Under the pieces are notes generated by a model that worked only from the letters and a program-made list of their open reading frames with translations, was not told the DNA's origin and made no database searches. Source: Rhizaria sp. SCN 62-66 (taxonomy: Eukaryota). From it: 64,000 bases of DNA. The stretch lies in the NCBI GenBank assembly GCA_001724265.1, contig MEDY01000017.1, positions 62,001-126,000 on the forward strand. The letters are read 5' to 3'. The first letter of the stretch is position 1; every line of letters begins with the position of its first letter. Of the stretch, positions 19,273 through 58,334 are shown in pieces. The translations under genes and the position numbers were made by a program.

Positions 19273-22200
19273 TCAAAAGAAGCGTCGCCAGAGCGAATCG
19301 AAGATTCCCTTAAGCACGACGCCAGCCAGACGAGGCAGGTTCTCGACCGCGTCCGCCACATAATGCGCCACTAACAGCTCACCCACTGTGCGCGAGTCCA
19401 CGCGCACTGCGCCGCAAGTCTGCTGCGAGTCTCCACCGACGACTGTACTCGTGTTCACGATAGTGGTGCTTGTGCTTGCACTTGCGCTCGATGCTGGCAC
19501 GGCTGCCGTGCTCGCGGTGGCCCGCCCTGCAGCAGTTGCTGCGGCAGAGGGTGGCGCTGCCACCGTTCCTAGCGGGACGGCGCGGAGATGCAGTGCAGTT
19601 GTGGTCACGTCAAGCCTGTCACACTGCAAGTCAAGCGGCACTGCGCGTCGCATCGCGGCTACTGCCACAGCAGCTGTCGCAGCAACATCAAGCGTACTGC
19701 CCTCTGTCTCAGCAACGTTCCTGTCTGAGGAGTTGGAAGTGCCTGCGGGGGTAAGCAATCCCGTTTCACGGACGGCAGAAGCAAGTGTCGCAAGTGAGAG
19801 TGATGGAATGGTGGCATTTGCTGTTGCTGCCGCTGCAGCAGCAAGCATCGGTGTGGCGTTCACAGCGGTCGTGGCAGATGCAGCAGTCCCAGCGTTCCGG
19901 CGCCCACGCAGTTTCAAAGACAGACGTGCTGTAATAGCAGGGGCACGCAGCAGCGCCAGGGGCAGCAGCGTTGACGGAGATGCGGCATCGGTGGGTGTCA
20001 ACAGCGTTTCAGCTAAGGCAGGCATCGCAGTTGCCATAGCGGCGACGCGTGAGACTGTCTCAGTTCCTGAAAGCACAAGCGCAGTGATTGCGGGCGCCAA
20101 GGCGGTGACTGTCGCCTCTGCGTCGCGAACATTGACACGAATAAGAGGCTGTGTTGCGCGTGCAACAGGCAATGCACTCGTGCCTGGCGCCGCCTTTGCG
20201 TTGCTGGGTAGTGTAGTCATATCCTCATCTTGTGTGGATGAGTCGAATGCGAGCAGACTCGCTGCGGTGAGATCAACTGACGATGCTGAACTAGGCGGGA
20301 AATCAAGTCGCCAGTGTTGCGCACCCGGCGGTGCAGTATCATTCGCAAGCGTAAGCGCGCGAGAGCCAACTGTGAGCATGCACAGTGCAGGTCCTGAACT
20401 TAATGCGTTATCCGTCGCGTCAACGCCGACGCGCGTGGAGACTAAACCCAACTCAACAAGCGGCTCAACACTTCCGTTCGTATCGGAAACTGCTGCAGCG
20501 GTGAGAGATGCAAGAGATGTGACCGTGAACATCGCCTGTGTGGGAACGCATCCCGTAGCAGCGCTACCCAGGCACGCCGGCGGCAACAGTGCGAGCTCAT
20601 TCTCCAACTGCGGAGCAAACGCTGATGGGATTGAAAGTGGTAACACGGCAGACACGAGCGCGCGTGCGGCTGTTGAAGTGTGGAACAATGTTAACGGCAA
20701 TAGTACGCTGCGATGCGTTAGTCCCGTGAGTGAAATAGTAGCCAGAGGCTTTGCAGAGTGCGTCGAATCAGCTTGACTCAGAAGAGTGGCGGTCAGTGCA
20801 GCAACAGAAATGTCAATCGAGCCTTGCGCACGGATTAAGTGCAATGGACGAGGGACACCCTGTGTCATCAACGACTTCGGTGCGGGTGTGTCAGGCAGCT
20901 TGATGATTGCGTACGTTGTTCCGTTGTCAGAAACAGTAACTGTAAGCACCAATGTCTGTGTCGCCCCGCTTGCACCTTCGCCGGACGTTGATAGTCTATC
21001 GTCAGCATGGGATTGTGAGGAGACATCAGAGTGGGAAGAAGTCGAATCCGCATTTGAATACGGCTGATGGTTATGTTGTGTTCTATGATGCGCAAATTTA
21101 ACAACGATGGGTTGTCCCTTGCCTTGGTTGCTCAGGTCTGTGGATATTTGGACTGGATGCGATGGTGCAGACCAAGGGCCCCAGGTCGCGGGTCGCGTCA
21201 GCGGCCGGCGGCAAGATACGCTCAACGACACAGCCTCTTGAACTCTGTCTTGCGAATTAGCGTTTGCGTCAACTTCTATTTTTTGACGTGCGGAGCCGGA
21301 GTCAAGCACGGCAATGCTGCCGGGTTGTCCCAGCCAAACGGGATCTAGCGCAAGCTCCACTGCTGCATGCGCGGGCAGCGAGTGTGGCGCGTGCGTGGGG
21401 AATGCTACTGCCGCCGAGACTAGCGCGGGCTGCCCTGCAACGCCGGCTGCACCGCCAGAGAAGCCCATCGACGATAGTAATGAAGAGGAGCGCGCGCGAC
21501 CGCGGCTGGCAGCGGCTGCAGCAGCAGCGTCGAGACTTTGCTTGTCAAACCCGCCTGCGCCTCTGCGAGGAAGCTTCTGGCCTTTGGCTGCAGCGCCAGG
21601 TGCAGTCGCTGCAAACGGCAGAAACGGTAAAGGTGTGACGCGCAGCTCAAGAGGCGTTGCGTTCACCAATACAACGCTGTTGACGACACGGCCAACAGCA
21701 GCGGCAGCCGACGCAGCTGCTGTAGATGACGAATGTGCATTGACGACCCCCTTACCAGATGAAGAAAATAGCGCCTGCGCCAACAGTCCGCTGTCATCAT
21801 CTATATCAATCACCGTTGAGACACAGTTTCCACGTGTGCGCCGTTTCGTGTCGCTCTTTTCTGAGACTTGCAACGTCGTGTTGGATAGCGCGTCAGCGTT
21901 AGCGGCCGCAGTAACGCGCGCCGCAACTGTTGAGCCTACTGTAGCCGCAGTACCAGTGCGCTTGCTCGCAGGCACCATAGTTGCCGTAGGCCCCGGCGCA
22001 GTACGTGCGCCCAGTGCAGGCGCGGGTAACACTGTTGCCACAAACAGTTGGGGCAGCGCTGCAGCGGCGCGTGGTGCCGGGCTCCATAGCGTTGCGCCCA
22101 CGTCTGATTCAACGGTAGGAAAACTGGGCAGCGTAGTTGCGGTAGCGACTGACGGCCGCTGACGCCCTCCATTGGCACTAACGGCGCCGCAACTCGGGCC

Positions 22201-25200
22201 CGCAGTGACGCTGGTGTTTATGCGCGGAGTGAGATCATGCAATAAAAATAGTGCGTTACACCAACGAAGTCCTGCATTTTTCTCAGCAGCACTGGAGTCG
22301 AAAATCGGAATCGACGCGAGCAGGTGCGCAACAGACACGTTAACTTGAGTCAAGACACGTAGCCTATCAACATCACCTTTACGTTGGAGCGCAGATACAC
22401 CAGTCACGGGGTGTAAGTTTGCCGAAACAAGGGCGCTGTCGGGCATCAAAGCAACGCCCGCGACAGGGCTCACAACGCCCAGAGCGGCGAGGCCTGCCAG
22501 CGCAGTCGACGCACCTCGCTGGCGCGCATTAGTTTGCAAGGTTGCGGCGACGGTCGGTGTGAGCGCATCCGCGGCATCTGGTAACGACAATAGCAGGTGA
22601 GCAATTGCGCCCACTGTCATACCGCTGCACAGTGCCGCAGCGTCGCTTTGCGTCTGACCCGGCAAAGCGATGTCGGAGTGCGGTGGCGACAGAGCCACAG
22701 TTGTGTGATGTGGCGTGATTAGTGCAAACAGCGCCAGATCTGATGGTGAAGGGTCGGTCCAGCACAGCTCAGTAGGGGGTTTCGCAGCTGTATCTGTGCT
22801 GACGTGCTCATCACTGCGCACGCGCTCAAGCGCAAACTGTGTGCCAACACCCAGATGTACAAGCAGCGATGCCGCGCCTCCAGCGCGCGCCAACTGTGTG
22901 AAACATGGCAACGATACTGTCAACGCCTCTGCTGCGTGTTTACCTGTCATAGCATTAAGCTGCGCCAATGGAGACAGGAGACGTGGAAGACCTGGCACTG
23001 TTGTACGCGCACACACAGCAGCTTCTGCGGGGTCTTGCGACAAAGATAAAGTCATGCCTGCGCTCGCAACCACGCCTGGCGCGCCCATGCCTGAGACTGT
23101 GGGGGAAAATAACGCTGACCGCGTCACAGCTGCAGCATCTAACACTGTAACGCGCGTCACCGTGCGCGTCCAAAGACGCAACGGCCGACGTACTGAGCCC
23201 AGTGACTGTGATGTTATGGCTGAGAGTGCAAGCGGGGCCACTGCAGAGATGGCCGGCGTAACAGTAAGCACAAGGCGACGTACAAGCCGACGCTCAGACA
23301 AAGATGTGCTGTCGTTGGAAACTCCGGTGGGACTCGTCGAAAGCGATGGCGTCGCAAGTTCAGATACGGGTGACGGCACTGCAGCAGTCGGTGCAGAGCC
23401 AAACGGATGAGCCGCCCACTGCCACCAAGTACGGCCACCAGGGCTCAACACAGACGCAGATGAATTGGTCGCGGAAGACATACTCGCACGAGCAGCCTCG
23501 AGCGCGCAGTCCTCGCAGTCAGGGATGCGGGGCGGTTCACAGAGCTCTGCAGTCACAGTGAGCACTAATGGCATCACGGTTGCGCCATTACTGTCACTCG
23601 CGGTTGTCAACTGTGGCGGTGCCCCAGTAAAACCGCCAGTCGCCGTCGCCCAAACCACAGTCCGCACAAGCACGCCCAGTGGCAGCTCTTCCCCATTGGC
23701 AACTTGTACGCTACTCTCGGGCTTAGAAGTGGTCGTCGTCTCCGCTGCAGTCGGTGCCGCAGCGCACTTTGTGCGCGACTGCGTGCGAGAGAGTGATCGT
23801 GACGTCGATCGCGAATTGGCGCGCGATAAAGAAGGCGCGGGCGTTGTCGGCGTCCCACCAGAAGCAGCTGGTGTTAAAGCGCCATCGCGGAGCACTCGGC
23901 TTTGCGAGCGGCTGATGGCTGGTGTTCCCGGCTTAGATGAAGCAGGTGTGCGCGCAGGTGACAATAACGTGGGGTCAAATAAACTCATCACGCTCTCTGT
24001 GTCACTGTAGTCATCATGTGCGTCGTCGCAACCACTGCTATAATCGCTTCTATAGTCATTACCTTGGTCGCCACCATGCTCATTGTCAACATCGCTTGAC
24101 TCAAAGTCGCCGCGGGCGTCAATGCTATCATAGACACCCATGGGCGCACTGGTGAACATTGACACCTCTGCTCTCGCGATGCTCGAAGGTACGTGTGAGG
24201 CGTGGTGGCGGTGTTTGCTCTTTGGTGCAAGTAATGTCGGATATAGCGCTGTGACAATGGCTGCAGGTAATACCGTCCTGTAAACAGTACCTGTTCCCTC
24301 TGATAGCGACAATGCAACATGTGGTGCAAAGCCAGTCTTTTTCTGTCTCTCTGGTGTCACCAGCAGTGCAGTCTGTGTTCGCGCCAACGAGCCTCCAAGC
24401 CAGTGCATACTATTGCATGTCGTCGTTGCAGCTTCACCGCCGTCATCCACTGTGAGTTTCACTGTGAGTGGTGTTACGTTGCGCAGCACGCGCAATGGTG
24501 TCACTGAAACTGATACAGTTGCACCAACACTCGCAGCATCACCTGCTGTGGTCGCGCTACAAATATGCCGAGGCAAAACTGTAAGTAAAGCAGTGGAAAC
24601 TGCAGTTGATGGTGTAATCGTCAGCGCACCAGCAGGCCCTACAGGTCCTACAAGCCACTGGGACGCGCGGTCAACTGAGCGGCGCAGCTGCTGCGCCAGC
24701 CTCTGCAGCTGATCTGGAGCAGCGGCCGCCAATGCGAGTGCAGTCGCGGCACCACGGGAGCCCGCTGGGTGTGTAGAGTGAGGCAAAATAGGCTCACTGT
24801 CCGTGTCGCCCGTGAATATGTGCGCCACTGCGGCCGTCTCTGCGCAAGGAGCAACGGATAACATCAACGGTATTGTTGGCACTGGAAGTGCAAGGTCCGA
24901 GGACCCATCGCGCGGGGCAGTCGTAAGATCAAACGACAAGTTGAATTTTGTCTCATCTGCAGTTGAAGTTGGCGTAACCCTAAGCGTTGACTCCCACGGC
25001 AGGCTTGCTCCACTTGCCCAGTCAGCCAGTCCACCAGCAAGCGTACTGCTCGCCTCAATGCGTGGAGTTTCTTCCGTATGCGCCGAAGTCACAAGCGCAG
25101 GAGTAGTAAACCGTCGCTGTGCCGAAGTCGTTGTGGTTGCAATCTTTGCCGCAGCCTCGACCTCTGCACAAGCAGTGGCAAGTAGTGGAAGCAGAGGCAC

Positions 25201-28200
25201 AATAGATGAGCGCACAGAGCCAGTAGTCGTAGTTGTAGATGTGAAACGAAGTGCAGACGGGATTGTGATAGTAACTGGTGCCACGCGCACAACAAGGTGG
25301 CCACCAAACGGGGGAGCAAGCGTGGGACCTTGAGAGGGCAAAATTGAGACTGAGACGCGTGCTGGTTCGATGACAGTGTGCGCTGCGCAATGTGTCGTGT
25401 TGGTGCGCAGAGCAGGTACTGAGACTGAAAGTGCAAAGCCAACAGCTGCCAGCTGCAAGGGTCCGTTATCAAGGCCCATTAGGGCAATGCGGGGAGTAAG
25501 TGTGCGGATTAAGTTGGGTGCAACAAACTTAAGTGCTTCTGCATAAATTGCCGGCTGGCCTGACTTGTACAAACGCTGCAGTTCGGTTAAAGCCAAATGT
25601 GAGGAGTTGAGATTTGTTACTGTGCAAAATAAGACCGGAGACTCCGTGCAAATCAAACTGGGTGGTTGAGCTGTAGATGATACACGTGCGGTGCCAGTCT
25701 CATGCTGAGCAACAGTAATAGCCACATCAATCGGCGCCGTCGCCGTGAGAGCATATGATGTACGCAGTGTGTCAACTGCAAAAGCAGCACCAGATGTAGT
25801 GGATGCACCCGTGAGTAGCAGTCCGCGGCATGCTGTTGCAAACAAACTGCATACAGCGTCCTCAGCAGACTTCGTTGTAGCTAATGCCGCAGTGGCTCTA
25901 TCGTAGTCGGTAGCATCTTGCTGTACGCATGATCCCATGTGTGGCAACAACACTGCTGCATCAATCGTTACAATCCATGCACGCGCGCACACAGGTGTTG
26001 ATCCGTCGCGTGAGACAGCATTATCAAGATCACGCCTGTCCGCGTCAGCTGCCTCATTAAGCGCCTCGTCATCATCTGGCAGAAACGAAACTCCCGCGCT
26101 ATGCGTGCTAAATAATGCATTTGCATCAATAGTCATTGAAAACCCCTTTTCAAGTTCACAGGCCCCATCTTCAGCTTCAGTAGAACCAGTGTTTGCGTTC
26201 GTAATAGCTAGCATGGACTCAATGGGTGCATCCGCAAGGGAACACGGAACTGGCAGTGCGGTCACCGTGATTTGCGGCCCGTGGGTGCTAGTGATTGGAA
26301 GCAAGGTTGCAATCATTGCTGCACATGCTTCTGCCTCTTCAACAGCAGCGGCATCAGCCACACTCACAATAGCCGTGGGCATAGTTGTTGTTGAAGCGGG
26401 CGCCAAGCGTGTAAGGCACACAGGGGCAGGAAATCGCATGAGCGCCGTATACCGCACACGAGGATGCATAGCAGCAGCCGCAATGATTGGTGAGGTGGCG
26501 CCATCGTCAGCAAGAGGTGTAGGATGAACGGCAATCGTAGACTCTGTCGTCGCAAGCGACAGGAGTGGCGCAACGAGAGTGTCCTGGAATGAGCTTGGCG
26601 CTACGCTGGGAGATGTTTGTGCTGGGACATTCGGCTTGGGCTATGTGAACGATCGACTTGTGCGTGGAGCAACTGTACCGAAAAATGCAATTGCCGGAAC
26701 GATTTGCGCCGCAGCTAGTGGAACGGATGTGATAAGACCAGTAATAGCGCCAAACAGTCGTGAAGGAATCGAGAGCGAAATGCGAGACCTGAGTCCAGAT
26801 GCTGCTGACGCGGGACAGAGAGTCAACCGCAACGAGTGTGAGCTGTCGACGCATGCGCTGTTGTCCGACATAATGCGAGCGGAGCGCAATGAACGCAGAG
26901 CAACGGTGACGGGTGACAATAAAGGAGTGATGCGAGGTTGCTGCGCCGCGACGTCAGGTGCATCAATCAGTGCGATAGTGAGCACTGGGCCCTCTGTCAA
27001 AGCGCTTGGTCCCGAGCCAGTTACAGACAGATTCATCGTGTCTTCCCATATTAGTCCGAACAGTCCACGCACTTCGGGTTCAGCTGAAGGTGATGATTGT
27101 TCTGACTGAGGATGAGATGGAGGATGAGAAGATGGAGACACACTCGCAGACGGTGCATCAGCAGTTCTCACGGCATCGGTTGGGCGGCTGCGCCAGGGTG
27201 AGCGTGCAGTGTCAAACCGTACAGTTCCAGCGCCAACAGTCAGCTGCATAACAGAGCCTGGCAACCGTGCACGCCGTTGCGGATCCGACAATACGTTTGC
27301 GATTGGCAGCGGGCCAAGCGCAACGCTTAGACCACCAAAGACAACGCGTGCTTTAACCTCTTGATCGAGCAGCTGCTGCAATACAGCTGCAGCAGGAGCT
27401 GAGGCGGTACTTGGTGACGCTGGTGAGCTCGTCGAGAGCACAGGGGTCTCACCCCACAATGCCGCTGCAGCAGCAGTCAACGCCGTAAGCGCGTTTGCTA
27501 CAGTGGGCGCAACCGCGGCAAGCGTGGAGGTTGCTGCGAAGATATCAGCTGTGGCAGCCACCGCACCAAGGCGCGCGCCCACATCGAGGTGTGCCAGCAG
27601 GGGCGACACAGACGTTGCTGCTCTAGATGGGAGGCGTGCCACAGGTTGAAAACGGCACAATGCGCGAAACACGGTGGGTGGAGATGGTGGTGATGCCGCA
27701 GCGTCGGTCAGTGCTGGCACTTGAATCGGCTTCCAAGTGAGTGAAAACAAGGCACGCGAGCTGCTTGCAGGTGCGCATCGTGTGCTGCTATAAGTAACCG
27801 CGGCATTGGAGCTCTTCGTTGGTAAAGACTTCTCTTCGTTTTTAGTCTGAGGTTCTGCGTGTGTCTCTGCCGGAACGCGTGCAGCCTTCGTGGTTTGAGA
27901 TATAGGAGAGACTGTTGACAGAGTTGCAGCAAGCGGCAGAGACTCAATAACAGCAGTAAATGCGCTGCTGTACACAGGTACCTGGCGAGAAAAGTTCAAT
28001 CGGCCACCTTGCCACCGCAGGCGCGCCTCGACAACGGGAGATGTTTTGAGATAAAGTGCTGCATCAAGACCGAGACACGTGATCGTCAGAGCCGAAACGC
28101 CATCCAGCGCGTGGTGAGCGCCGGTCTGCTGAGGCAGCATTGGCGACGCATCTTCATGTGTTGCTGTTGTTGAAATACACGCCGTGTTGCCCTTCGATAG

Positions 28201-31200
28201 CATCGAGCGGACCATGTTGGCAGCCCCTGTTGATACAGCAGCAATTGCATGTTGAATCATCAGCATCACAGCAAGCCCCGACGATAGCAAGAATAGCGCG
28301 TTCGCAGGGAGCACGTCAGCGCTGACTTTCACACCAGCCGCGTCTACTGCAGCGCCAAGTGACAGAGTCTCAACTGTGGCAGCAACGGCAACCGCAACAG
28401 GTGCCGGGCCAGAAGCAGTCAGTGCAGGTGCGGGCGTAAGAGTAAATTTGACGCCGGGCAGCACCAGTCGCACGTTATCACCACTCAGTCCTGTAGATGC
28501 GGTACTCAATGTCAGGGTTGGCGGCAAAAGTGTAAGAGCCAGATGACTGTGAGCGCAGCCAACACCTGCAGCGCCTGAACCACCGGCCGCCATTGCAACA
28601 GCGGCCGCAGCCGCTGACACAGCTGCCGCGTGCGCTTGGCGCCGTTGCTGTTCTAGCTACAACTGCAGCTGGTGCTGCTCGGGGCTCTGTGAGAGCGTGA
28701 GTGAGCGCGGAAAAACTGGCGGCGGTCCATGAAGCAACGCCGCGTTATGCTGAAAGAAGGCAACATGGCGCAGCACCGCACCGACAGGAGGTACTGCACC
28801 TGCTGCAGCGGTGGCCTCAGGTGCTGTAGGTGGCGGGCGCGGGAAAGGAAGCGTCTGCAACGCGCGAGACAGCATTGGTGCGAGTGATGTGATGCATGCA
28901 GATGAAGCAGCTGATGCGGCTACAATCACGGCCGCTGGAACCGGCCCCTGGGGTGTCTGGATGTGATGTGTGGCTGGTGATGGCAAAAGCAACGGCAAAG
29001 AGACCACATGCGCGCCGGGAATAGATAGAGCGGCTGCGTGTGCGCCTGTGCCGGCAGAAATAGGCGCAAGCCCAACGTTGATGCTCGAAGGCGCTAGTAC
29101 CCAGAAGGCATCGCTTGCGGCCATATCGACCAAAGGAGGAACAGTGGTGTGAGTGGGCGCTGATGTTGAAGCTGTGGAAACGTTTTGCGGAGGGATCAGC
29201 GCAGGAGGTAATAGCGGCAGCGATGCTGCAACGGCGAATAGTGATGCAATCAAGGGTGCAAACTCCATCGGTGATACGTGCATGCTAATGCCCGCAACAG
29301 CGCCCAGAGTAACTAAGCGTGGCAATGCAACCACAGTGCCGCGCAATCGCGGAGCTGCCGAGAAAGACGAGACTGCGGTCATACCTCCCCAGTCAAGAAC
29401 GCGTGGAAACGCCATGCGTCGTGCAGTCACAGACATAAGCGTGTCAGCATACGATGTTGGCTCGCGTGACGTGGGTGATACGACAAACGGTGGCACGGTC
29501 GTTGTTAGCGCAACCCAGCCTGCAGACAGTGGTCCAACAGAGAGGGCCGTCACGTTGTGTGACGCGGAGCTGTCCAATGCGCTCGCCATTGCAAGGCTCG
29601 AGGGCTGGGGAAACTGACGCAAAGACACGAAAGATAGCCGTAGCAGCAGCGCACGCGTCGACACGGTAGTAGATGTGGCAGCCATCTTGGTGCTTGAGTT
29701 AGCGGGCTCCGCAGCACGTGGCATCCTAACCGCAAGAGTAAGCTCTGACACGGTGATGGCAATGGGAGTTGCAACAGACACCAGCGCGTCGGTCATCGCA
29801 GCGGGTGCTGGTGCAAACGGGGATGTAAACGGACTCGGTGTTGCAGGAGCGACAGCCGCCGCAGTAGTTGTAGCAGCTGCGCCCGCATCAACTGGCGTCG
29901 GGCGAGCAGCCTTGGCAGTAGCAGCGGAGCTCGCAAACGCCGTAAACGCCGGTGTGCTCAAAGTCGCTGCGATGCTGCGCAGCGCGCGTAGCAGCACAGG
30001 TTCCTCGCCGTCGGAGGCTCCGCATGGCCCAGCAAGGTCGAGAAACACTCGACCGGTACCAACGGTGACCGTAGTACTCACAGTCGCACCCTGCGCAACG
30101 CCTGACCCGGCCCCCACCCCCGCCGCCGCGGCAGCGGTGGCGGAGGCGGCGGCGGCGGGGCTTGTAGCGCCAGCTGCTGCTGCAGCTGCATAGGGCGCTG
30201 AAGCCGTGCGTGAAATCCGAAGCGCGCATGCGTGTGGCAGCGGATAAATCACCGCTGCGCCCGTCGCGGGGTGCGGTGGCGCAAGCGGCGGGGTCAGTGC
30301 GGCCCAGAGATCTTCGAGCGCGACACGCACGCGGCGTGAACCGAGGCGAGTCGCGACAGAGTGACACGCGAAGAGCGACAGCGGCAAAGTCGCGGGAAGT
30401 GGTGTCATAGCACCAGCAGCCAAAGGCAGCGCGGGCGAAGCATCGAGTGGTAAAAGTGGTTGCACAATGTGCTCAGGTCCCCACACTGCAACTACAGTAG
30501 TAGACAGCGTGTTGTCAAGACTATCCCTCTCCAATGCAACCACGTCAATCGAAGCGCGAGCGTGTTGCTAATGCGTTAGCAATGCGAGGGCACCGAATGA
30601 TAGCGTGAACAGCGGACCAGGGTGTGCCAACGCGCGCAGTGGCGTGCGAGACGAACGCGGGTCGGCGCGGTGCGTACATAGCGGTAATAACACCGCACGT
30701 GAACGCGCGTGTGCGGGAGCACCTCGCGCGCGACGGCCACCAAGAGGGGGCAGACCGCCGCACGCGCCGTTGTCGCCGTCGTTGTTGTCGTCGTCTTCGT
30801 CCTCGTCATCGTAGTCCTCGTCGTCCTCGTCATCAACAGCAGCGTTGCTTGAGGCGCCGGGACGGCATGTGTCATACGGCATCAGGAGCGGCAGCGGGAC
30901 GCGTGGCAAGCGCAGCGGCAGAGGCAACAGTACCCCGCCGTCGCCCGCAATCGCGGCGTCGTGCCAGGGCTGGTGCGTAAGCGTTGTGCCCGCGGGGACC
31001 ACATCGAGCACATTAGCCACCGCTGCTGCACCGCTCGCGTATACACTGCGCGCGCGTTGCCGCCCAGCACTCGTCGCAGCGGCGTCGCCACCGTCGTCGT
31101 CGAGGAGTCCGCTGACGGAAAGCATAGCGTCGTTCAGAGAAGCGGCCGCAGCCGTCGCTGCAGCTGCTGTTTCCGCAGCATCCGCAGGAACCAACGCTGC

Positions 31201-34200
31201 CGCAACAGGACACGGCAGTGGTGCAGTCAGTGCTAAAGATATCAAAGACAGTCGCAGAGTCAACATCGGAGTCGCGTGTTGTGCGGAAAGTACACGCGGC
31301 TTTTGTGTGTGATTGGTGCGTGAACTAAGTGCTACGCATGCAGGCAGTGAAATAAGCTCCCACAGAAACGCCGCCAACGACGGCGACACAGAAGCAATCG
31401 CGCGAGTAACCGCACTCATCGGGCCGTCGTCGCTCGCTTTCACCGAGGCAGGTGCAGTCGACAAAGAGCTCGCCTGCTCATGCATACTCGCGCGAGTGCG
31501 GCTCTCAGAACCAGTACTGCCCGCAGAGTTGCGGCGCGCAGCAACAGCAGCAGCGTAAGCGGCGGCAAAAGGCAACGGCGCGCGGCGCACAGTCACATGT
31601 ACTGCAACAGGCACGCGGGCTGCCGTTGAATTCTTTGCTTCAGCGGCTGTGGTAGGAGCAGGCATGTCACGGCACCAAACAACGGCAGCACCGGGAGCGT
31701 TTGCACTCACAGTCACGATATGGACAGGAGCAAATGGCAGGACGCGCCGCGCAAGCTCCGCGCGCTGAGCGCTTACGTCGCGCTCTAAGGCTGCGTAGGC
31801 TGCGTTGTTGCCGCGCGCGCCACGCGGCGCGGCTGCGCGCGGCGGGGACTGTGGCTCATCCTCAGACAGGCTCATCAGCGTGAGCGCGCTGATCGAAGAC
31901 GTGATGCCGCTGAGAAACCCCGACGCGGCGCCAGGTCGCTGCCGCACGGGCGGGGTCGCCAACACAGAGCGCGGCACGGCAGGGCCTGAGCCCGCGCCGC
32001 TGTCAGGCGCAAACGAGCAGGCTGACGCAACTGCGGCCGCGGCCAGCATAGCCGCTTCGGAGTCCAAATCAGTTAGCACGTCGGGTCGCTGTGGCAATGT
32101 GGAAGGTGCGGGAGCGAATGGTACGCTGTTGCTATCAGGCAATGGAGATGCGACAGACGAAGGTCCAGCTGCAAGAGAAGACAGCAGCTCAATCAGGTGT
32201 GACTCGGTGAACGCACGTAACTGCTGCGGGCGCAGCGCCACTGCAAGTGTGGTTTCAGCCGCAAGCGCAATCGCCACGGCAGGTCCTGCGGGCGCTGACG
32301 GTAGCTGTGATGTGTCCCTGTCAAGCTCAAACCCCAACCAAGGATGCACTGCGGTGCCACACGCCGCTGCCGCCACACCGGGGTCGTTATCAATGCTTCC
32401 GCTGTCAGCGCTTCTAGGCGTTCCAGATTGCGTTGGGGAGAGACATGCGGCGGCCCAGGAAGCAACGCAGGCTAAATGCGCAGTTACACGGATGCGCACG
32501 TTGAACGGGCTTAACACACAGTCCGTCCCATAAAACCCACGCATTGCAGGCCTCGAAACTGGCGCCTTCTTAGCAGTTGTGCTCGACGATGTGGTTGCAC
32601 GCGATGCGGCGTTAGTTGCGCGTTGCGTGCGTGCTTTCCGCGGTGGACATGTCGAGATGTAAATCGCTAGCCCACGGACGCGAATCTCGCGGTGCACACG
32701 CAGCCAGGGGCCCGCAGGCACTGCAAACGCCTCGGTCCACTCGGGTGCATCCGCAAACACGCCACGCTGCGCAGCGCTGACGGGGCCACGTGGCGGTTGG
32801 GTGGAGTGCGCTGCCGACTGAGGGGCAGCACTCTGAGGAGGTGCAAGAGGAGCAGAACGCGATGATGCCGAAGAATGGTTTGGCGCTGAAGCTGAAGCAA
32901 ATGCTGTGGTCTGCAGCCCAGGTCCCGGCAGCAGTGGTGGAGGAGGCAGCGGGCCGTGCTGTCGGCCAGCGTCAGCGCTGTTCACATTCGAGTTTGAGTC
33001 AGCAGGTAGCATAGTGAGTGGGTCGTCCAGTTCAGAAGGCAACTCACCACGTATCGCACTCAGAAACGAGCCAAAATACGATGCCACCTGCGCAGCAGAC
33101 TGCGCGGCGCTGGTTGCAAGACCGGGGCCAGTGGCGGCGCGCCGGACCGTGGGTTGGGGCGGCGCCGCGGCAATTGCTGCAGTCGCCGTGGCGCTAATTG
33201 CAGCGGTTGTGGCGGTATCTGGGTCAATCAGAGCAGACAGGCTCTCTGCGTTTGTGGTAGTGCGGGATAGGGTGTTTAAGCCGGTGGCAGTAGCCGTAAA
33301 GCCAGTATTGCCTACACCCACGGGATGAGTGTGAGTGGAAGAGCCGGGAACAAAGCCAGTATTCTGTACTGAACCGGTTCCTGGTGTGCCTGGTTCACAG
33401 TCGCCGTCGGTGTCAGTCTCCTGCTCAGAGTCGCAGTCGGAAAGGCCCTCGTGCGGTGTCGTCACTACAGAGTCGATGTCGCCATCGTCGTTGGCAATTA
33501 CAGCGGATTTAGTCGCGCTAACGCCAGCGGGTGGCGACTGCGACTGCGTCACAGGTGCAGGCTGGGTGGCAGACGCAGAGGCGCCAGCGGCAGCTGTCGC
33601 GGGGGCAAAAGTAGCACCAACAGGAGCGGCAGTGGGCGGCGTAACAATAGCACGCGGGCGCGCAAGAGAGAACAAACGCTCACGCGTGGACTTACCGGAG
33701 GTTGCAGTCGACGCGGCGGTCTTGCTTCCATCATGAGAGACAGCAGAGTCTGTAGACACAGCGCTAGGAACAGTCTGCGTTGCAGCGGCACCAGTGCGGG
33801 CGCCCTTCGTGGGTCCAGTAGAGGGGAATGTGCGTAACTGCGCAAGCTCGAGAGTGGCTTCAAGTCCGGTCGCTGGCTCAACGTAGCGGAGCCGCACGTT
33901 GGTTAGGCGAGCAACGACGTTTGCCGCAATGTCGCGCGCCGCGTGCTAGAGCATCGCGCTCGCCGCCGCTGCGGTTGTCACGTGCGCCGCGCCACCGCCA
34001 ATGTCCGGCGCGGGCGACGCTGGCGTTGGCAGGGGAGTGGGGGGCAGCACGGGCGGCGAGAGTGGTGAGGCAGCGGTGGCAGATGCGGCAGAGCCGTTGG
34101 GCGGGGTGGCAAGCTAGAGCGTGATCTCAAGCCCGTCGACGTGCACAACGGTTGACGATGAGAAAAGACGTGACCATGGTACGTCGACGTTCAACGCCTT

Positions 34201-34482
34201 GATCGAGGCGTTTGTGATGCGGAGCCCAGGGGGCAACGGGAGGACATCGGCGAGAGCTGCAAAGCGTGCGACACAGGTGACAAACAGTGAGATGAGCAAA
34301 GATATTGAAGGGTACGTAGAGACAGTTGAGATAAATTCAAAGAACTGGGGCGTACCTTCTGTTTTTACGCGAAGATTCTCAAGGGAGATCTTGCCTGACC
34401 AAAGGGAGAGCTTGGTATCGACGTCGTAAAAGTACTTGTGTGTGTACTTTTGCCAGAGCCCCGAGAGGAAACCCTGCAACAT
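19273..34482 (-). CDS. VPS13: VPS13-like (chorein-N) bridge-like lipid transfer protein, about 5036 aa if one intron is removed and five in-frame TAG codons are read as sense
   Basis: After splicing 34257..34355 the N-terminus reads MLQGFLSGLWQKYTHKYFYDVDTKLSLWSGKISLENLRVKTEALADVLPLPPGLRITNASIKALNVDVPWSRLFSSSTVVHVDGLEITL (chorein-N), later DIAANVVARLTNVRLRYVE. ORF pieces 34114..34482, 30568..33897, 28657..30543, 26641..28620 and 19273..26469 share one frame and are separated only by TAG. VAB-like repeats (RVLRNVTPLTV, VVLVNATPLELRV) occur. Ends TGA. Confidence 0.8.
34257..34355 (-). other. Spliceosomal intron in the VPS13-like gene (99 nt, phase 1)
   Basis: GTACGC...TTTGCAG and pyrimidine-rich. 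Removing it restores the chorein-N spacing (LRVKTE-ALADVL). Confidence 0.8.
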
Positions 34483-47527: not shown

Positions 47528-49308
47528 TCATTTCTCGCGGTACGCAAGGGGGAACTCGTCGTCCTCATCATCATCACCAGTGCCACCCCGGCCAGTGCGC
47601 ACCTCCCACGGCGGCTTGCGGTACGATTCCACCACAAGCTGCTCCGCGCCAGCGACACCGCGCGCGAGCAAGAGATAGCTCGACTCGCGCAGGTTATGCG
47701 GGTGGAACTCGCACGCTTCGGGTGCGAACTGCGCCAAGAGAGTCGCGATAGCAGCCGTGTCAATCTCCTTGTGTTGCAGCTGAGAGGGCGCAGAAGCAGA
47801 CGCAGCGGCAGTGGCAGTGGCCGCGTCGCTGGAGATGGGTTTGATCGGCAGCGCAGCGGGGAAAGCGCTCTCAAAGGCCGCTTTGTTCCACTTAGTCTCA
47901 GTCACCGCGGGCGCGGGCGTGGGGAGGACGCCGAGCGTCTGCAGCGCCACAGCGGCAAGCTGCGCGTCGCGGAATAACGGGTTCGCCAGAGGGGACGTCA
48001 GAGGGTCCAGGGCGGAGGGGGCGAGGAGGCGGCGCGCGGTCAGGGCGCGGTACTTCGTGTACAGCGTAGCAACCTGCGAGATATTAAAAAAACAAACACA
48101 AGAAGGCAGGAAAACAATGAGTTATTTCATGAGAACAAATGAATTATGAGTCAAATTAAAAATACAGTTGATTAAATTGAGCAAACCGATAAAAGTCCGA
48201 TGAATTTCAATGGGTTTTAAGAGATAGTGGTAAGAATGGAAACGTACTGAGTTAGCGAGGAACTTGCGCCTCTTGAGCACCAGCAGCAGCCTCTCGCTAT
48301 CCGCCTCACTCAGCCCAGCAACGGTACCATAATTGCCCTTGCCATCACGCTGCGCCAACAGCGCTGCGGCCTCCATCTCAGCCCCCCGCAGCTGCTTCGC
48401 GAGCGCGCCGAGTTCCCCGGCCAGCGCGACGCGGTTCGCGACATGCGGCGCGTCACCGGCAGCGGCGACCTTGGTGCCAGACCCGTCGTGCGCGAACGTG
48501 GCCCCGTCGGCGCCGCCCATCGCGGTAGCCATGCCGTCCGCGCTGGCGCCGCTGCTGGCGAGCGCGGCGAGCTCGTCCATGTCGACGACCCGGCGCACCG
48601 GCGGCGCCGCGCGCGGGAGAGAGCCCAGCGCCAGAGAGGCGAAGGCGAGCGCGGTGACGTCGCGGAACCACTGCGCAACAAGGCGCAGCGGCGCGGCCCG
48701 CAGCGCGCGCTGCTCGGCGAGTTCACGGGCCACGAGGGCCTGCGCGTCGACCTCCTGGTCAGCGGAGCGCAGGAAGTGGAAGGAGCGAACCATGATGTCG
48801 GAGGAGCTCGAGTGTAGAACACGGTCCTCGAAGGTCGTCAGGGCCGGGCCGCGCCAGGTGCGCTCAAGCACGTACGGGTAGTGATGGGTTGGGTGGCGGA
48901 CGATGACGCCGACGTGCTCTAAGTCGCCGCCGTTGGCGCGCTTGGCGAGGTGGGTGAGGAGGAACGAGAGAGGGTCGCGGGACGCGCGTGTGCGCGAGAA
49001 AAACACGAGGTCACCTATATTCAAAGAAAGAAAGCAGTAATAAACAGCAATGTCAAAAGAAAAACGTTAGTCTTAGTCATTGGGTATTCAGTAAGACAGA
49101 GATATAGGCTTAAATAAGCAAACAGCGTGCTTTTTTCTGCTGCTGTACCTGTTTGGAGTGAGGAGAGGTAGGCCTCGCCGATAGATTGAGAGCGGAAGCC
49201 AAGACTAGGCTCAGCATCCTTGTTGGGCTTCGACGCAGCGTAGTACATCGAACCGAAGGAACCGGCGGCCACTGCTGCGGCCGCAGAGGCGATGCGACCG
49301 AAGGACAT
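47528..49308 (-). CDS. Three-exon permuted NlpC/P60 (YiiX/YebB-like) papain-fold protein, possibly catalytically inactive
   Basis: Exons 49308-49149, 49014-48248 and 48073-47528 join in frame. Motifs LQTGDLVFFSR, EHVGVIV and PYVLE, with a later LFRDAQLAAVALQTLGVL segment. Ends TGA. Confidence 0.65.
48074..48247 (-). other. Spliceosomal intron (174 nt, phase 0)
   Basis: GTACGT...CTCGCAG, AT-rich, joins ORF 48122..49024 to the frame of 47528..47950. Confidence 0.82.
49015..49148 (-). other. Spliceosomal intron (134 nt, phase 1)
   Basis: GTACAG...ATATAG, T-rich. Splicing creates LQTG-DLVFF. Confidence 0.82.
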
Positions 49309-49796
49309 TTGTGCTCACACAACTCAGTCAAAGCTGCTTGGATCGCAAGGTTTGCCCTGAAGCGAGGAGAGGAAGTACGAACAAATAAGATCGATATTTT
49401 ATATGAGATTAACATTGATTTCCATTATACATACTGTTATGTCTATTGACGGACATATGACAGCACACACTCAGCTCTTAAATCTTTCTTTACACGAGAC
49501 ACGACTGTGCGTTGACTGCACAGAAGATCACGAAAGTGGCAATTTGATCACAATATGTGTATAAATATATATTAACGGCACCAAGCCTCACTCACACACC
49601 TTCGCACCAAGCTCGCAAAAACACAACAAATACCTGCACAGTCATCTGCTGTCAGTTGTTGTGGCAATATCCTCGGCGCAAATCCAACATGCATCACTTT
49701 GTTACTGCGCGGCGGCGGCATCACTCCGCCTGCCTCAGTTATATATTATTCAATTCCGACGAGCTCTAAAAATTACGTTCTTTTTCTTTTGGAGCG

Positions 49797-51246
49797 TTAG
49801 AGCGCAGTCGCCTTGGCCTTGGCAGCCTCGGCCTCCTCCTTGCGCTTCTCCAGCACGTTCTTGATGAAGAACTCACCAGCGCGGTACGAAGAGCGGACGA
49901 GGGGGCCCGAGGCGACGTAGAGGAACCCCATTGACTCGGCCTCCTCCTGCCAGCCCTTGAACGCCTCGGGAGTGATGAACTCCTCCACGCGCAAGTGGCG
50001 CGGCGACGGGCGCAAATACTGTCCGAACGTCACGACGTTGACGTCGACGTCACGCAGCGCGCGGAGACAGGCACGGATCTCCTCGGGCTTCTCGCCGCAG
50101 CCGAGCATGAGCGACGTCTTGGTGATCACATCCGGGCGCGTCTTGCGCGCGTGCTCCAGCACCGACATCGTCTGCGCGAAGCTCGTGCGGCGGTCGCGCA
50201 CGACATGTTGCAGAGACTCGACCGTCTCGACGTTGTGTGCGAAAACGTCGAGTCCCGCGTTGACGACGGTGGCGACGGACTCGAGGCGGCCGCGGAAGTC
50301 CGGTGTGAGCGCCTCGACGAGCGGCGAGGGCGTGTGCTGCTTTAGGAGGCGGATCGTCTGCGCGATGTGCTCCGCGCCGCCGTCGGGCAGGTCGTCGCGC
50401 GTCACCGATGTGAACACCACATAATCGAGCCCCCAGCGGAGAATGGCGTCGGAAACGTTGGCGGGCTCGTTGGGGTCGAGCGCGGGCGGGGTGCGGGACG
50501 TCTTGACGGCGCAGAAGCGGCAGGCGCGGGTGCATGTGTCGCCCATGAGCATAACGGTGGCAGTGGACTGGCCCTTCTTGCCGCCCCAGCACTCGCCGAT
50601 GTTGGGGCAGTTCGCCTCCTCGCAGACAGTGGCGAGCTTGAGCTCGCGGACGGTGGAGCGCATGTGCTCGAACTGCTCGCCGCGCGGAGGGGACATGCGC
50701 AGCCACTCGGGCTTCGGGGACTTCTCCTTCTGCCGCGGGCGGGTAGATGCGGTGGAGGAGACGATGGGGATGCCAGCTGCGGCGGCCTCTTCGGCGGCGG
50801 CGGCGATGTCTTCGGGGCTTAGCGCGGTGGGGATACACTGAGTGCGCAAATAGGAAGAAAAACATACGAAACGGCAATATAGCAACAAATACGTACAATA
50901 CAGACAGACAAGTATCGAACGTGAGTTGATCGAGTGAGTGAGAATTTAGGTGAAGCAAAACAAGGGCGGTGAGAGAGGTCAAAGACAGTGTGCTTCGCAC
51001 GAGAGCAGAGAGAACGCGTTGAGATTGTGATTGTTTGTTGTTGAGACGTACACCAACGGTGGAGACCGCGGGGTTGTGCTTAGGAGTGGAGTCGGGCTTG
51101 CTCATGAAGTCCTGCAGAGAGAGGCCGTCATCCGGCAAACGCGAGGAGCCAGCAGCGTTAGCAGAGGGGTTGCCGGCCACGGTGGTGATCGAGCGGCACA
51201 GCGCGGCGGAAACCGCGCGAGCGCCGCTAAGGCGCGAGACGAGCAT
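49797..51246 (-). CDS. LIAS: Mitochondrial lipoyl synthase (radical SAM), two exons
   Basis: Targeting peptide [19 protein letters not shown]. Motifs [37 protein letters not shown] and [12 protein letters not shown]. Exons 51246-51052 and 50837-49797. Ends TAA. Confidence 0.95.
50838..51051 (-). other. Spliceosomal intron in lipoyl synthase (214 nt, phase 0)
   Basis: GTACGT...ACTCAG, C/T-rich, restores the frame between the targeting peptide and the catalytic domain. Confidence 0.78.
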
Positions 51247-54658: not shown

Positions 54659-57600
54659 TCATTGCGAAAGCCAAGGCTGCGGCTGCTGATGACGGCGGTG
54701 GTGAAGCTCGCTCCCACTTCCCGACGGCACTGACGACGACACCACCGACACTGCAGAGTCCCCCGAGCCAGCGCCCGCGCCGGCGCCATGGCTCGCACCC
54801 GCACTCGACACAGAGCCAGCGCCCGTAGTACCCACGCCCGCAGTACCAGCGCCCACGCCCGTGCCCGCGCCCACGCTCGTGTTCGAGATGAAGCAAGCAC
54901 TCGGCCTCGCGGCAGCGTTGGAGACAAGCACGGGAGCAGTGGGAACCGAGATGGGGGCAGCGACCGAGCCGACTGTGGGGAGAGATGACAGGATCGCGGC
55001 TGACGAAAGCGGCGCGGGCGGCGTCGCAGGCGCGCGCTGCAGCGGCGACGGCGGCCGTTTCGCGCGCACACTCCACTGCCCCAGCCCCGTCCCCAGTCCG
55101 AGTCCGTGTCCGTGCTGCGGCGACTGAGTGTTAGAGTGCGGGTTCGACTGCGATGGCGCCTGGAGCAGCGACTGCGCGCGGCCGAGAACGAGCGCGCCCG
55201 AGGTGTCAGCGACGGGCGGCAACTGCACAAGGTCCGGGATGACGAACCTGCGCTCGCGGTCACCAGGCACCATAGCTTCGCTACATTCGCTGTCGCTGCC
55301 GCCATCGCTGTCGTTGTCGCGTTCGCAGTCGGCGGCGTCGCCGTCGCTGTCGCCGCGGTGTGACACGACCCCACTGCCGCCACTGCTGCGGCGTGCACTT
55401 GCGCTTTTACTCATGCTAGCGCACGCACGGGCGCCGCGGGCAGAGGCGCGGCAGGGCGTTGCAGCTGCGCCGGGGAGCGTGCGGGCGCCGCCGATGCTCG
55501 TGGAGTGAGCCGCGGAGTTGCTGTTGCAGCTGTTTGCGGCGGCGGTGAACACAGGACGCGGCGGCGTGCAGACACCGAGGAAACCACCCGCACCCGCAGT
55601 ACCTGTGGTACCCGCGACCCCATGAGTACCAGCGACGGGGGGCGTGCCCTTAGTCGTGGGTACCGCAGGAGCGACCTTCGGCGTGCCACCTGTCCCGGTG
55701 ACCGTGGGTGCGCCACTCTTGGCCTTGGGCACAGCAGCGGAGGCGGCGACGGCGGCGGCAAAGGCGGGCGGAGCGATCAGAGTCGGCAGCGGCAAAGCAA
55801 CGTCTTCATACCCACTTACCATGCTGGCGCGGCCCCGACCGAGATTGGGGGAGCTGCCCGCAGACACAGAGCCGACACCCGCCCCAGCTCCAGCGCTGGT
55901 GCCGGAGCTCAGGCTCGTGTTTGTGGCGAAAAGCAGAGGCACGGGCAGGGGCCGCGCGCGCTTGCTGGCGCTGGCTTCCTCGACACCGCCCGCAGCGGTG
56001 GCCACACCGCCCTTGCTCACGGTCACTGCAGTGAGGGCGGCGGCCAGAGCGCGGTCTTCCTTGGCGTCCGCGTCGTCCTCATCTTCGTCACTATTATCGG
56101 TTTTGTTGTCGTTCTTGTCATCGCCAGCTGTGCTGCCGCGGGAGAGACGGCGTTGCTGGCGCTGGCGCTGCTGCAACAGCTGCTGCTGCTCCGCAAAGAG
56201 TTGCCCCAGTGACAGTGTCGGCGAGTGGCGACGCTTCAACCCACTCGCGTTCGCGCTCACGCTCGCACTTGCAGGCGCACTGGCACTGGCAGTCGCAGTC
56301 GACTTAGCGCCGGCGCCGGTGCCAATGGGCGTGCTCATGTTGCTCGCGCTCGCCGCGGCGCGCTGGCAGTGGGCGCGGTAGGCAGAGTTGGCGGCGTTGA
56401 TGTGCAGCAAAGCGGCCATGGCGGCGGCAACGCTCTCAACGCCGTCTTTGGCGTCGCCGCTGTCACTGTGGTCGCTCGAGACTGAGTCCTCGTCGACGGC
56501 GCTCTTGTTGCGGAGAGTGGTGTTGTCGTCGTCGCTGTCGAGGTCGTTGAGCCCAGAGCCAGAGCCTGAGACCGCGCGAGCAGTGCCAATCTGACTGCTC
56601 TTGCTCTTAGCCTTGCCTTGGCCCTTGTCTTTGCCAGTGGCAGAGGCGGCGGCTGCGTTGGTAAAGGGGGCCTGAGCACGGGCAGAGAGCAGAGAGCGCG
56701 CGTCTTCAGGAAGCTGCAGCGTCATCATCGACTTGTTGGTCGACTTGCTGCTTTTAGGCGCAGTTACGGCGTCAGAGGCAGCGGCTGGGGACGAGGCAGG
56801 AGTCACCTTGACAGTCAGCCCACTGCGGCTGCCGGTGTTGTTGTTGTTCTCATCGTCGTCTTCACTGTCGCAGAGCTCGATGATCGTCCCACTCGAAGGC
56901 CTCGCACCACCTTCATTGTGACGCCTCGCGCCCTCACTGTGACCGTAGGCGTGGCCGTGCGCGTAACCGTGAGCAGTAGCGTCGTCGTCGTCGCAGTGCG
57001 TCAGAGCAGCGCGCACGACAGACTGCACGCCGTGCAAAGGGCACCACGCGCGGGCCGGAACCCAGGCCGAGCAGCACCGCGTCTGCGCAGACGAAGTGGT
57101 GAAGCGCTCATGCAGAGTGTTGTTTCTAACGCCGCCCGCGGTGGAGTCGTGGGTGAGCAGAGGAGGCGCATACGTCAGCGCTGGAATCTCATAGGTCAGC
57201 GCGGGCACGCTTCCGGGGGCGTGCTTGTCACCGCTCCCTTTGCCGCGAGTGACGAGTGCGGAGCTCAAGTCGAGCGCAAAATCGGCGTCAGAGTCGGAGG
57301 GCGCGTAGGTGAGTGCGGGGATTTCGTAAGTAAGCGCGGGCAGCGAGTTGTCGGCCGCGGCCGGGACGGAGGTAACGAACGCGGAGTGTGTGGCGTTCCA
57401 ACGGGGCGCCGCGTCCTCCGTGTCGGCGTTAAGGCCGTTGGTGCGGTGCGCGGCGGCGGCGTGGGGGTCGTACGTTGTCAAGTAGCGCGACTGCAATGAT
57501 AAGCTGCTGTCGGTCTAAGCGACGGTCATGGGAAAGCTCTGTGTGCTGGGGACGACGCCGGCGCCGGCTGGGCTGTGGTGGAGTGCCGCAGCAGAGTTGT

Positions 57601-57991
57601 GCCGAGTCGTGGAGAAGGCGTAGTCATCGCTGTCAAGCATGGAGGCGCAGGACAGCGGAGCGGGCGCGGCAGCACGCGGGAACGACTGCAACGACGCTGA
57701 CACAGGTGCATGCATTGGCGCGGGCACATGAGCAGGCCACGAGGATGACGCAGAGAAGGAGGAAGCTGCAGTGACGGGAGCGGCGTGACGGACGAGGTCA
57801 GATGCGGCAGCGACGCTGCGGGACGTGAGCTCGTGCCACTGGTGGGGCGGGAAGCGAGCGCTGGCAGCAGCGTGTGGACCGTGGTAGGCGGTGGACGCGT
57901 TGGCGGCGTTGGGGATGGCGGAGGCTGCGGCGGCGGCGGACTTGGTAGTGCCGCTCTGCTGGGGGACAGACCAGAACCCCGGCGCGCTCAT
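54659..57991 (-). CDS. Low-complexity hypothetical protein (about 1110 aa) with one in-frame TAG at 57515-57517
   Basis: ORFs 57515..58237 and 54659..57496 share a frame and are separated by a single TAG. Likely ATG at 57991 (MSAPGFWSVPQQ). Contains a duplicated PALTYEIPALTYAP, a Cys/His cluster and a SIM-like IIELCDSEDDDE. Ends TGA. Confidence 0.62.
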
Positions 57992-58334
57992 GGGCAGACC
58001 GTGGGAAATAGTCTGTCGCGGATTGTGATTAAAACTGAAACAAGAAACAGACATGCGTGGTGCACCTGTTGTGAGCAAAAATTGGTTCAATTGACGTTGG
58101 TGGCGATCACGGGACTTCGAACTTCTTAGGGCGCGAGAGGACACGTTTTCCAGTCGACTCTCGTCGATTCGAGAATGCAGCACCCAAAAACGATTTGTGG
58201 TGGAAACTAATCCGAGACATGCACGGTACTTTTTCACTCTATTGCATAATAATAATAACTGATTCTATGTATTCAAGTTTCATACTATCTATTTCTATGT
58301 GTTAAGTATGAATGTGAGCTATTTTCAGGCTTCA

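Follow-up and report, generated by a model that had tools for sequence, protein, structure and literature searches.

In-frame UAG codons in a VPS13-like gene of a wastewater eukaryote and partial support for a sense reading of UAG

Nuclear genetic codes in which UAG alone is reassigned, or in which UAG and UAA have been split, are listed by McGowan et al. (2024) for the rhizarian exLh (UAG = Leu), Iotanema spirale (Gln), Scotinosphaera (Ser) and Protocruzia tuzeti (Gln); the same compilation includes phyllopharyngean ciliates (Leu and, twice, Gln) and a ciliate in which UAA encodes Lys and UAG encodes Glu. In exLh, as described by Panek et al. (2017), 71 genes contain 384 in-frame UAGs, most of them at positions where Leu is conserved, and UAA (56) and UGA (15) are the only bona fide stops; a tRNA with a CUA anticodon is predicted and eRF1 is discussed in the same paper. 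Our literature search found no report of UAG reassignment in a wastewater or a GC-rich eukaryote. Here we analyse a 64,000-nucleotide (nt) stretch of DNA (hereafter the window) deposited under Rhizaria sp. SCN 62-66 (GenBank assembly GCA_001724265.1, contig MEDY01000017.1, positions 62,001 to 126,000), in which a very long VPS13-like gene on the minus strand is interrupted only by five in-frame TAG codons. A preliminary description of this DNA had concluded that the organism reads UAG as sense while keeping UAA as a stop. That proposal is partly supported: the TAGs are in frame and exonic, they occur in two genes, and none of 16 genes ends in TAG, but TAG is rare and unevenly used and the evidence comes from this window only.

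The long frame was followed by translation of the minus strand and by a listing of its codons. Its internal stops number exactly five, all of them TAG, and not a single TAA or TGA occurs among its 5069 codons; the other five frames across the same interval contain 12–58 TAA and 43–139 TGA apiece. From the position-specific base frequencies of the frame itself, approximately 25 TAA, 34 TAG and 26 TGA codons would be expected, and the complete absence of TAA and TGA against this expectation identifies the open frame as real coding sequence, far beyond chance. The start and end of the frame, the places of the five TAGs and the peptide contexts that the preliminary description had quoted around them were all confirmed. 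It had also described the 15 kb frame as interrupted by nothing but the TAGs; this holds in that there is no fixed frameshift, TAA or TGA, but the frame is not one uninterrupted exon, since a probable in-frame intron lies inside it (Table 1).

Public runs with matching DNA comprise a polyA metatranscriptome and the metagenomes that several studies obtained from bioreactors, wastewater and activated sludge. The stretch is present in four assemblies (X1–X4), of which X3 belongs to another study and X4 to a third; X6 is the polyA RNA library (study P3), represented by contigs rather than reads, which show neither expression level nor strand and in which DNA carry-over is possible. The contigs of X3 and those of X4 each span all five TAGs with no difference at any of them, and the public protein P0001, which ends at TAG1, is one identical sequence on 6 contigs. 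Hence the TAGs are not assembly errors, an explanation that had been considered in the preliminary description. One X6 contig (record 31, 33767–34056) bridges TAG2 with zero differences and so contains this TAG unspliced and unedited; unless it stems from carried-over DNA, this single RNA contig would agree, for TAG2, with the earlier expectation that the TAGs are retained in transcripts. The X6 contigs listed are scattered along the VPS13-like gene from 19278 to 34639. It is thus shown that the five TAGs of this gene exist and are fixed, that they are exonic and in frame, and that selection keeps their frame open.

Two regions of the gene call for care when contigs are compared. An acidic, GC-repeat low-complexity stretch (DDEDDED...) at 30120–30840 is common to other organisms and attracts hundreds of foreign contigs; it also gives rise to false joints at ∼30130–30830, and the depth there reaches 1944 in the RNA run. 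In addition, one low-depth X6 RNA contig has a 2-nt deletion at 33975 in a GCC repeat, 27 nt before TAG2, which may be an allele or an assembly error.

The chorein-N fold at the N-terminus of the predicted protein encloses TAG1 and TAG2, and homology to VPS13, to ATG2 and to two distant homologues, P0003 and P0004, extends on both sides of them in the same frame, which bears out the earlier claim that the conserved motifs continue past the first two TAGs. The conserved strand that precedes TAG1 reads GVEITV in P0003 and TIECVL in P0004, and the conserved helix that follows TAG2 aligns to VPS13 and P0003. A HMMER scan of the first 250 residues against 1.84 billion representative proteins returned four matches. 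Two of these are pieces of the gene itself, produced by a standard gene caller, namely P0001 (122 residues, from the ATG to TAG1) and P0002 (1109 residues, ending at TAG3), so that the predicted fragmentation by standard gene callers is indeed seen in public protein collections. The other two are P0003 and P0004, with ∼30% identity, encoded on contigs that are 2170 and 1311 nt long. Residues 1–2700 gave no match in a word-index search among proteins of similar length, P0001 as a query matched only itself, and neither a scan of metagenome contigs with the N-terminus nor a scan of genome contigs gave a match. In addition, TAG1 and TAG2 each lie within an identical octamer, GCTCTAGC (at 34114–34121 and 33946–33953, respectively), 168 nt apart, which is probably a coincidence.

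A profile built from three sequences matched VPS13 of C. thermophilum (6cbc, E=3.4e-14), VPS13C (E=3e-12), VPS13A (E=7e-12) and ATG2A (E=2.9e-11) in the PDB. A structural model of the N-terminal 250 residues gave 6cbc (Vps13, E=3.5e-6) and the Atg2 N-domain (E=1.9e-4) as top Foldseek matches, with alignments to Vps13 and Atg2 N-domains covering 204–230 columns; as the AlphaFold model is of low confidence (mean predicted local distance difference test score 53), these matches are supportive only. Pfam matches are limited to VPS13_N over residues 1–42, which scores 29.7 bits where the cut-off is 80, and ATG2_CAD over residues 76–137. No Pfam family was detected in residues 1001–5069 at E<=0.1, no other VPS13 or ATG2 domain was found in the remaining ∼4800 residues, and the VAB, SHR-BD and ATG_C regions were not detected in the protein. 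For the last 1000 residues, an Atlas search gave a lead to VPS13_VAB/VPS13_M clusters with a score of 0.83, under the 0.9 bar. The protein thus resembles the VPS13/ATG2 bridge-like lipid-transfer proteins in its chorein-N N-terminus, by profile and by fold, in its great length and in the C-terminal Atlas lead, and differs from them in its sub-threshold VPS13_N match, its lack of any other recognized domain of these families and its having only two distant homologues, both N-terminal. The name VPS13 used in the preliminary description is therefore retained at the level of the chorein-N superfamily but not as a proven VPS13, and since VPS13_N is below threshold, no further family was found and the Atlas score falls short, we file the predicted product as a VPS13-like chorein-N bridge-like lipid-transfer protein.

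The same type of interruption occurs in a second gene of the window, termed gene M, in which no Pfam family was found. Gene M has a positive coding score in one frame from ∼58140 to ∼54900, where stops crowd the other two frames. The coding score is 0.28 and 0.43 on the two sides of its TAG, the 262 coding-like codons that follow the TAG contain no ATG, and the flanking sequence (GC 0.70 and 0.60) has no AT-rich spacer. Together, in-frame TAGs occupy six sites in ∼17,500 codons and are found in 2 of 16 genes, five in one and one in the other. The preliminary description had held that frequent TAG ends among conserved genes would speak against a sense UAG; in the window, the 16 genes with definable ends terminate in TGA (9) or TAA (7) and never in TAG. 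Although this sample is small, TAG makes up 20.6% of stop trinucleotides in the window, and at that share the absence of TAG ends has p∼0.025. Among coding-like open reading frame tails, a TAG end is seen only in the N-terminal piece of the VPS13-like gene, in gene M upstream of its in-frame TAG and in two antisense shadows.

Table 1. Features of the window discussed in the text, with the sequence context of each in-frame TAG and the contigs of other runs in which it is found unchanged.
Feature	Position	Strand	Description and context	Contigs with the TAG unchanged
VPS13-like (chorein-N) gene	19273..34482	-	ATG at 34482, TGA at 19273-19275, 5069 codons, one frame	
Probable spliceosomal intron in VPS13-like frame	34257..34355	-	99 nt, phase 1, length a multiple of three, stop-free, GTACGC...TTTGCAG, GC 0.45	
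TAG1, codon 123	34114..34116	-	Directly 3' of conserved strand GLEITL; GC 0.55 in 60 nt upstream, 0.72 downstream	X3 record 8, X4 record 16
TAG2, codon 179	33946..33948	-	Just ahead of conserved helix DIAANVVARLTNVRLRY; upstream GC 0.75	X3 record 8, X4 record 15, polyA-RNA X6 record 31
TAG3, codon 1305	30568..30570	-	Upstream GC 0.57, T 0.28, not intron-like; GTACGC 110 nt upstream, CTAAC 7 nt upstream	X3 record 7, X4 record 12
TAG4, codon 1942	28657..28659	-	In Gln/Leu-rich stretch QHQLQL*LEQQ (asterisk, TAG); upstream GC 0.62	X3 record 6, X4 record 11
TAG5, codon 2614	26641..26643	-	Upstream GC 0.48, T 0.30; GTACAG 36 nt upstream	X3 record 4, X4 record 11
Gene M, no known domain	54659..58276	-	In-frame TAG at 57515-57517 (codon 254 of open frame); ends in TGA	
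Two adjoining multi-exon genes	47528..51246	-	Frame switches across AT-rich dips; source of three reference introns (GC 0.31-0.44; last 27 nt 0.74 pyrimidine)	
Intron	50838-51051	-	214 nt	
Intron	49015-49148	-	134 nt	
Intron	48074-48247	-	174 nt	
Gene N	58335-59864			
Gene P	61931-63961			
Utp14 gene	3-2990	-	Extends beyond the window	

We infer from these observations that the five TAGs are translated, and the decoder and the amino acid are inferred with them. In the mechanism that we propose, UAG would not terminate efficiently; ribosomes would insert an amino acid at UAG and continue, UAA and UGA would stay terminators, and the five TAGs of the VPS13-like gene together with the TAG of gene M would be ordinary but rare sense positions. 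The likeliest decoder would be a tRNA with a CUA anticodon derived from tRNA-Gln, giving UAG = Gln. That UAG is translated through such a dedicated tRNA, with UAA and UGA remaining terminators, we regard as fairly probable though far from assured. Homologues have Q (human ATG2A), A (P0003) and S (P0004) in the column of TAG1, and Q (C. thermophilum VPS13), E (human VPS13A), E (human VPS13C) and A (P0003) in that of TAG2. Gln is our best guess, weakly indicated, because Q occurs in both columns, TAG4 is preceded by QLQL and followed by LEQQ, CAG is one transition away from TAG, and Gln is the commonest outcome elsewhere. The aligned residues, being polar or small (Q/E/A/S), do not favour Leu.

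In having in-frame UAG only, with UAA and UGA as terminators, the locus resembles what is described for I. spirale (Fornicata), P. tuzeti and two phyllopharyngean lineages, the systems with UAG = Gln. Gln fits the two alignable columns here, and a tRNA(CUA), one step from tRNA-Gln(CUG), has been proposed in that group. The present case differs from these codes in being from a GC-rich (∼62%), intron-poor genome from wastewater, and in its very rare UAGs, nearly all of which lie in a single gene. With exLh and a TARA ciliate lineage (both UAG = Leu) and with Scotinosphaera (UAG = Ser), as these are described, it shares the uncoupling of UAG from UAA, and its stop usage (7 TAA, 9 TGA and no TAG) is comparable to that reported for exLh.

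A number of observations weigh against a settled sense code. TAG is far scarcer here than in exLh as published, with 6 in 16 genes set against 384 in 71. Within the VPS13-like gene its five occurrences represent ∼15% of the compositional expectation (33.6). It is also unevenly distributed: the VPS13-like gene has 5 in-frame TAGs in 5069 codons, and 14 other genes together have 1 in 12,432 (p = 0.009 by Fisher test, or 0.005 when measured against Gln codons), with none in the neighbouring genes of 2251 and 2548 codons. The lack of TAG ends in 16 genes has a p of only ∼0.03–0.07 if TAG is simply a naturally rare terminator (0.07 at a share of 15%). The preliminary description had proposed a search for a tRNA-CUA; in the 64 kb window no tRNA of any kind was found. 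The assignment of an amino acid depends on only two alignable columns, those of TAG1 and TAG2, which are poorly conserved. RNA coverage among the X6 contigs listed extends to only one of the five TAGs in the VPS13-like gene (TAG2), where DNA carry-over is possible, and does not reach the 99-nt intron; the contigs listed for a further run, X5, cover none of the TAGs. The gene itself is atypical. Its GC content at third codon positions (GC3) is 0.52, compared with 0.73–0.84 in 12 of 14 other genes (0.59 and 0.67 in genes N and P), and its coding score is 0.136, compared with mostly 0.22–0.54 for the larger genes of the window (0.124 for gene N). Its polymorphisms are 6 non-synonymous to 3 synonymous, and one X3 contig has a one-base deletion at 28371 that would shift the frame at ∼codon 2038 and may be an allele or an assembly error; relaxed constraint would give both.

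That TAG is so sparse points to a reassignment that is young or still ambiguous and not one settled long ago, and an incomplete or ambiguous reassignment, or tolerated readthrough, fits the data at least as well as a clean reassignment. Parallels are found in the ambiguous or context-dependent stop/sense codes of Condylostoma, karyorelicts and Blastocrithidia and in near-cognate readthrough by tRNA-Gln in yeast, in which a codon can be both tolerated in frame and disfavoured and a tRNA competes with eRF1. The codes of Condylostoma, karyorelicts and Blastocrithidia differ in that they also involve UAA and/or UGA and in that the reassigned codons are abundant; in the window, moreover, UAG is not seen acting as a terminator.

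The strongest of the alternatives holds that UAG is still a weak stop, and that low levels of the VPS13-like and M proteins would arise by near-cognate readthrough (for example by tRNA-Gln CUG) with no dedicated suppressor tRNA; TAG would be avoided as a terminator because it is leaky, and tolerated inside genes only where a low yield is harmless. The rarity of TAG, well below its compositional expectation, and its concentration in one long gene of weak codon bias are in keeping with this, and near-cognate insertion of Gln at premature stops has been documented in yeast. A stop codon followed by C is in the weakest termination context. In the VPS13-like gene the base after each of the five TAGs is C, and a purine follows 11 of 15 true stops. 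However, C follows 39–46% of TAG trinucleotides and NNG codons in any case, so that five of five has p∼0.013, and the TAG of gene M is followed by A; the C was consequently dropped as weak evidence. The Q-stop-Q context, as described in a preprint, is present at none of the six sites. In addition, losses at successive leaky stops multiply, and 30% readthrough at each of five would give 0.2% full-length product, a yield that is hard to square with selection keeping a 15 kb frame open. We judge readthrough at a weak stop to be unlikely as an alternative to translation by a dedicated tRNA.

It is also improbable, in our estimation, that the VPS13-like gene, and perhaps gene M, has recently been inactivated or is represented by a null allele, with the TAGs as true stops that would yield short N-terminal peptides or nothing. 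The atypical codon usage and low coding score, the excess of non-synonymous polymorphisms, the possible frameshift allele in X3 and the lack of TAGs in other genes would all be accommodated, and TAG is the commonest nonsense outcome (42–59%). Under the codon usage of the VPS13-like gene, 42–45% of nonsense substitutions give TAG, and the probability that five of five do so is 0.013–0.019; with the pooled codon usage of neighbouring genes the share is 59% and p = 0.07. Nonsense changes represent 2.0–2.6% of substitutions, so that five TAGs imply ∼200–250 substitutions. Polymorphism data for the gene comprise 9 substitutions and 1 one-base deletion (the deletion at 28371, which is not in a homopolymer and is 67 nt from a contig end), and at this ratio ∼20 indels would be expected alongside those substitutions, of which none is fixed. 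The five fixed nonsense codons, with no TAA, TGA or fixed indel, hence have a joint probability of ∼0.015 multiplied by that of no frameshift among ∼20 expected indels.

Further points tell against inactivation. A GC3 of 0.52 requires changes at approximately one quarter of third positions, and a dead gene that had drifted so far would hold dozens of stops of all three kinds; in our reading, the gene has had its low GC3 for a long time and its frame is still being maintained. The same type of lesion occurs in gene M, and RNA contigs are scattered along the whole of the VPS13-like gene. Two lower-identity X4 contigs over the N-terminus (34381–34441) differ from it at 15 sites, 13 of which are third codon positions, and their 18 listed changes comprise 15 synonymous and 3 non-synonymous, indicating purifying selection on the N-terminus in relatives. 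The mixed stops, frameshifts and loss of frame of a decaying pseudogene are not observed in fixed form, as all stops are TAG, no indel is fixed and the frame persists over 15.2 kb; the 6 to 3 polymorphism and the deletion allele are compatible with weak constraint. C-to-T hypermutation of the repeat-induced point mutation (RIP) type would favour TAG without indels, and was considered separately. RIP is indicated by TpA/ApT > 0.89 and (CpA+TpG)/(ApC+GpT) < 1.03. The gene has values of 0.73 and 1.30, respectively, with CpA and TpG over-represented, which is opposite to the RIP signature, and this possibility was rejected. The lower-identity X4 contigs also indicate that related organisms share the plant with the source organism.

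The organism has spliceosomal introns, and one of them is most likely hidden in the VPS13-like frame itself. A 33-residue insertion (residues 43–75) is missing exactly from both P0003 and P0004 in BLASTP and MAFFT alignments, and on this basis 34257–34355 is most likely a spliceosomal intron. It cuts a conserved chorein-N motif and would, if read through, add 33 hydrophobic residues. Its 5' splice motif is that of three frame-switching introns in neighbouring genes (Table 1). These four reference introns start with GTACG or GTACAG, have a GC content of 0.31–0.45 and a T content of 0.36–0.45, and are 0.67–0.74 pyrimidine in the last 27 nt. Of the introns in the neighbouring genes, one contains a branch-like ACTAAC motif and one has ATATAG as its 3' end. 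The open reading frame at 50050–51246 given by a plain open reading frame finder is an artefact, in which exon 1 runs into the intron and then into the wrong frame of exon 2.

The TAGs might accordingly never reach the ribosome, either because they lie in short in-frame introns, where the TAG would be or precede a YAG 3' splice site, or because the RNA is edited. Precedents within the window are the stop-free intron in the VPS13-like frame, whose length is a multiple of three, and the real intron that ends in ATATAG; splice-like motifs also precede TAG3 and TAG5, with a CTAAC ahead of TAG3, and the coding score is ∼0 over the 60 codons preceding TAG3–TAG5. Against this, the 60 nt ahead of the six TAGs have GC contents of 0.48–0.75 and T contents of 0.10–0.30, so that the AT-richness and the pyrimidine tract seen in the four real introns are missing from all six. 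Splice-like hexamers occur 17 times in the VPS13-like gene by chance. Intron solutions read by eye for TAG3 (192 nt), TAG5 (78 nt) and the TAG of gene M (33 nt) were rejected on composition, the one for TAG5 being the sole frame-keeping solution at that site and lacking a pyrimidine tract. As TAG1 and TAG2 abut conserved residues in sequence of GC 0.55–0.75, as an RNA contig passes TAG2 unspliced and unchanged, and as every such intron would need a length divisible by three and no TAA or TGA, removal of the TAGs by splicing or editing is very unlikely.

The remainder of the window, ∼62% GC and intron-poor, carries eukaryotic genes on both strands, including those for Utp14, an EMC2-like TPR protein, a SET-domain protein, a BMT5-like methyltransferase, a HECT ligase of 2548 residues and a BART-domain protein; no tRNA genes or Rfam families were found in its 64 kb. 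The best named relatives of the Utp14 protein are from fungi and green algae (31–39% identity), which does not amount to a placement, and an Atlas search with the BMT5-like protein gave fungus-dominated clusters only. The Utp14 protein (P0005, encoded on the same 144-kb contig as the window) has 1519 residues; it exceeds the fungal homologues found by ∼500 residues, the greater part of which is an N-terminal extension. The HECT domain encoded next to the VPS13-like gene matched only 3 loci among metagenome contigs, at 33–36% identity, and these were not used. Codon usage in the window falls into two classes. Twelve genes have a GC3 of 0.73–0.84 and CpG odds of 1.08–1.32, with CpA odds mostly near 1.0; the second class, formed by the VPS13-like gene and genes N and P, has a GC3 of 0.52–0.67, CpG odds of 1.05–1.08 and CpA/TpG odds of 1.3–1.4. 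Expression level, methylation-linked decay of CpG and regional effects are possible causes of the two classes.

Standard gene callers cut the VPS13-like gene at its TAGs, which corrupts the annotation of contigs from this organism. Few codes separate UAG from UAA, and they are informative on how the capture of a stop codon can avoid drawing in UAA through wobble. If true, a sense UAG here would be a further case beside the known ones, possibly at an unusually early stage, and UAG that is gone from gene ends yet rare inside genes would represent an early phase of capture, unlike the cases described so far with abundant UAG. More tentatively, and with considerable doubt on our part, the organism may be a deep wastewater eukaryotic lineage early in a UAG-only reassignment, in which UAG no longer ends genes, is decoded (probably as Gln) and has so far entered only a few long or weakly biased genes; it would then be an 'ambiguous intermediate' found in nature, with a GC-rich genome and no relation to the cases known from ciliates, fornicates, rhizarians and green algae.

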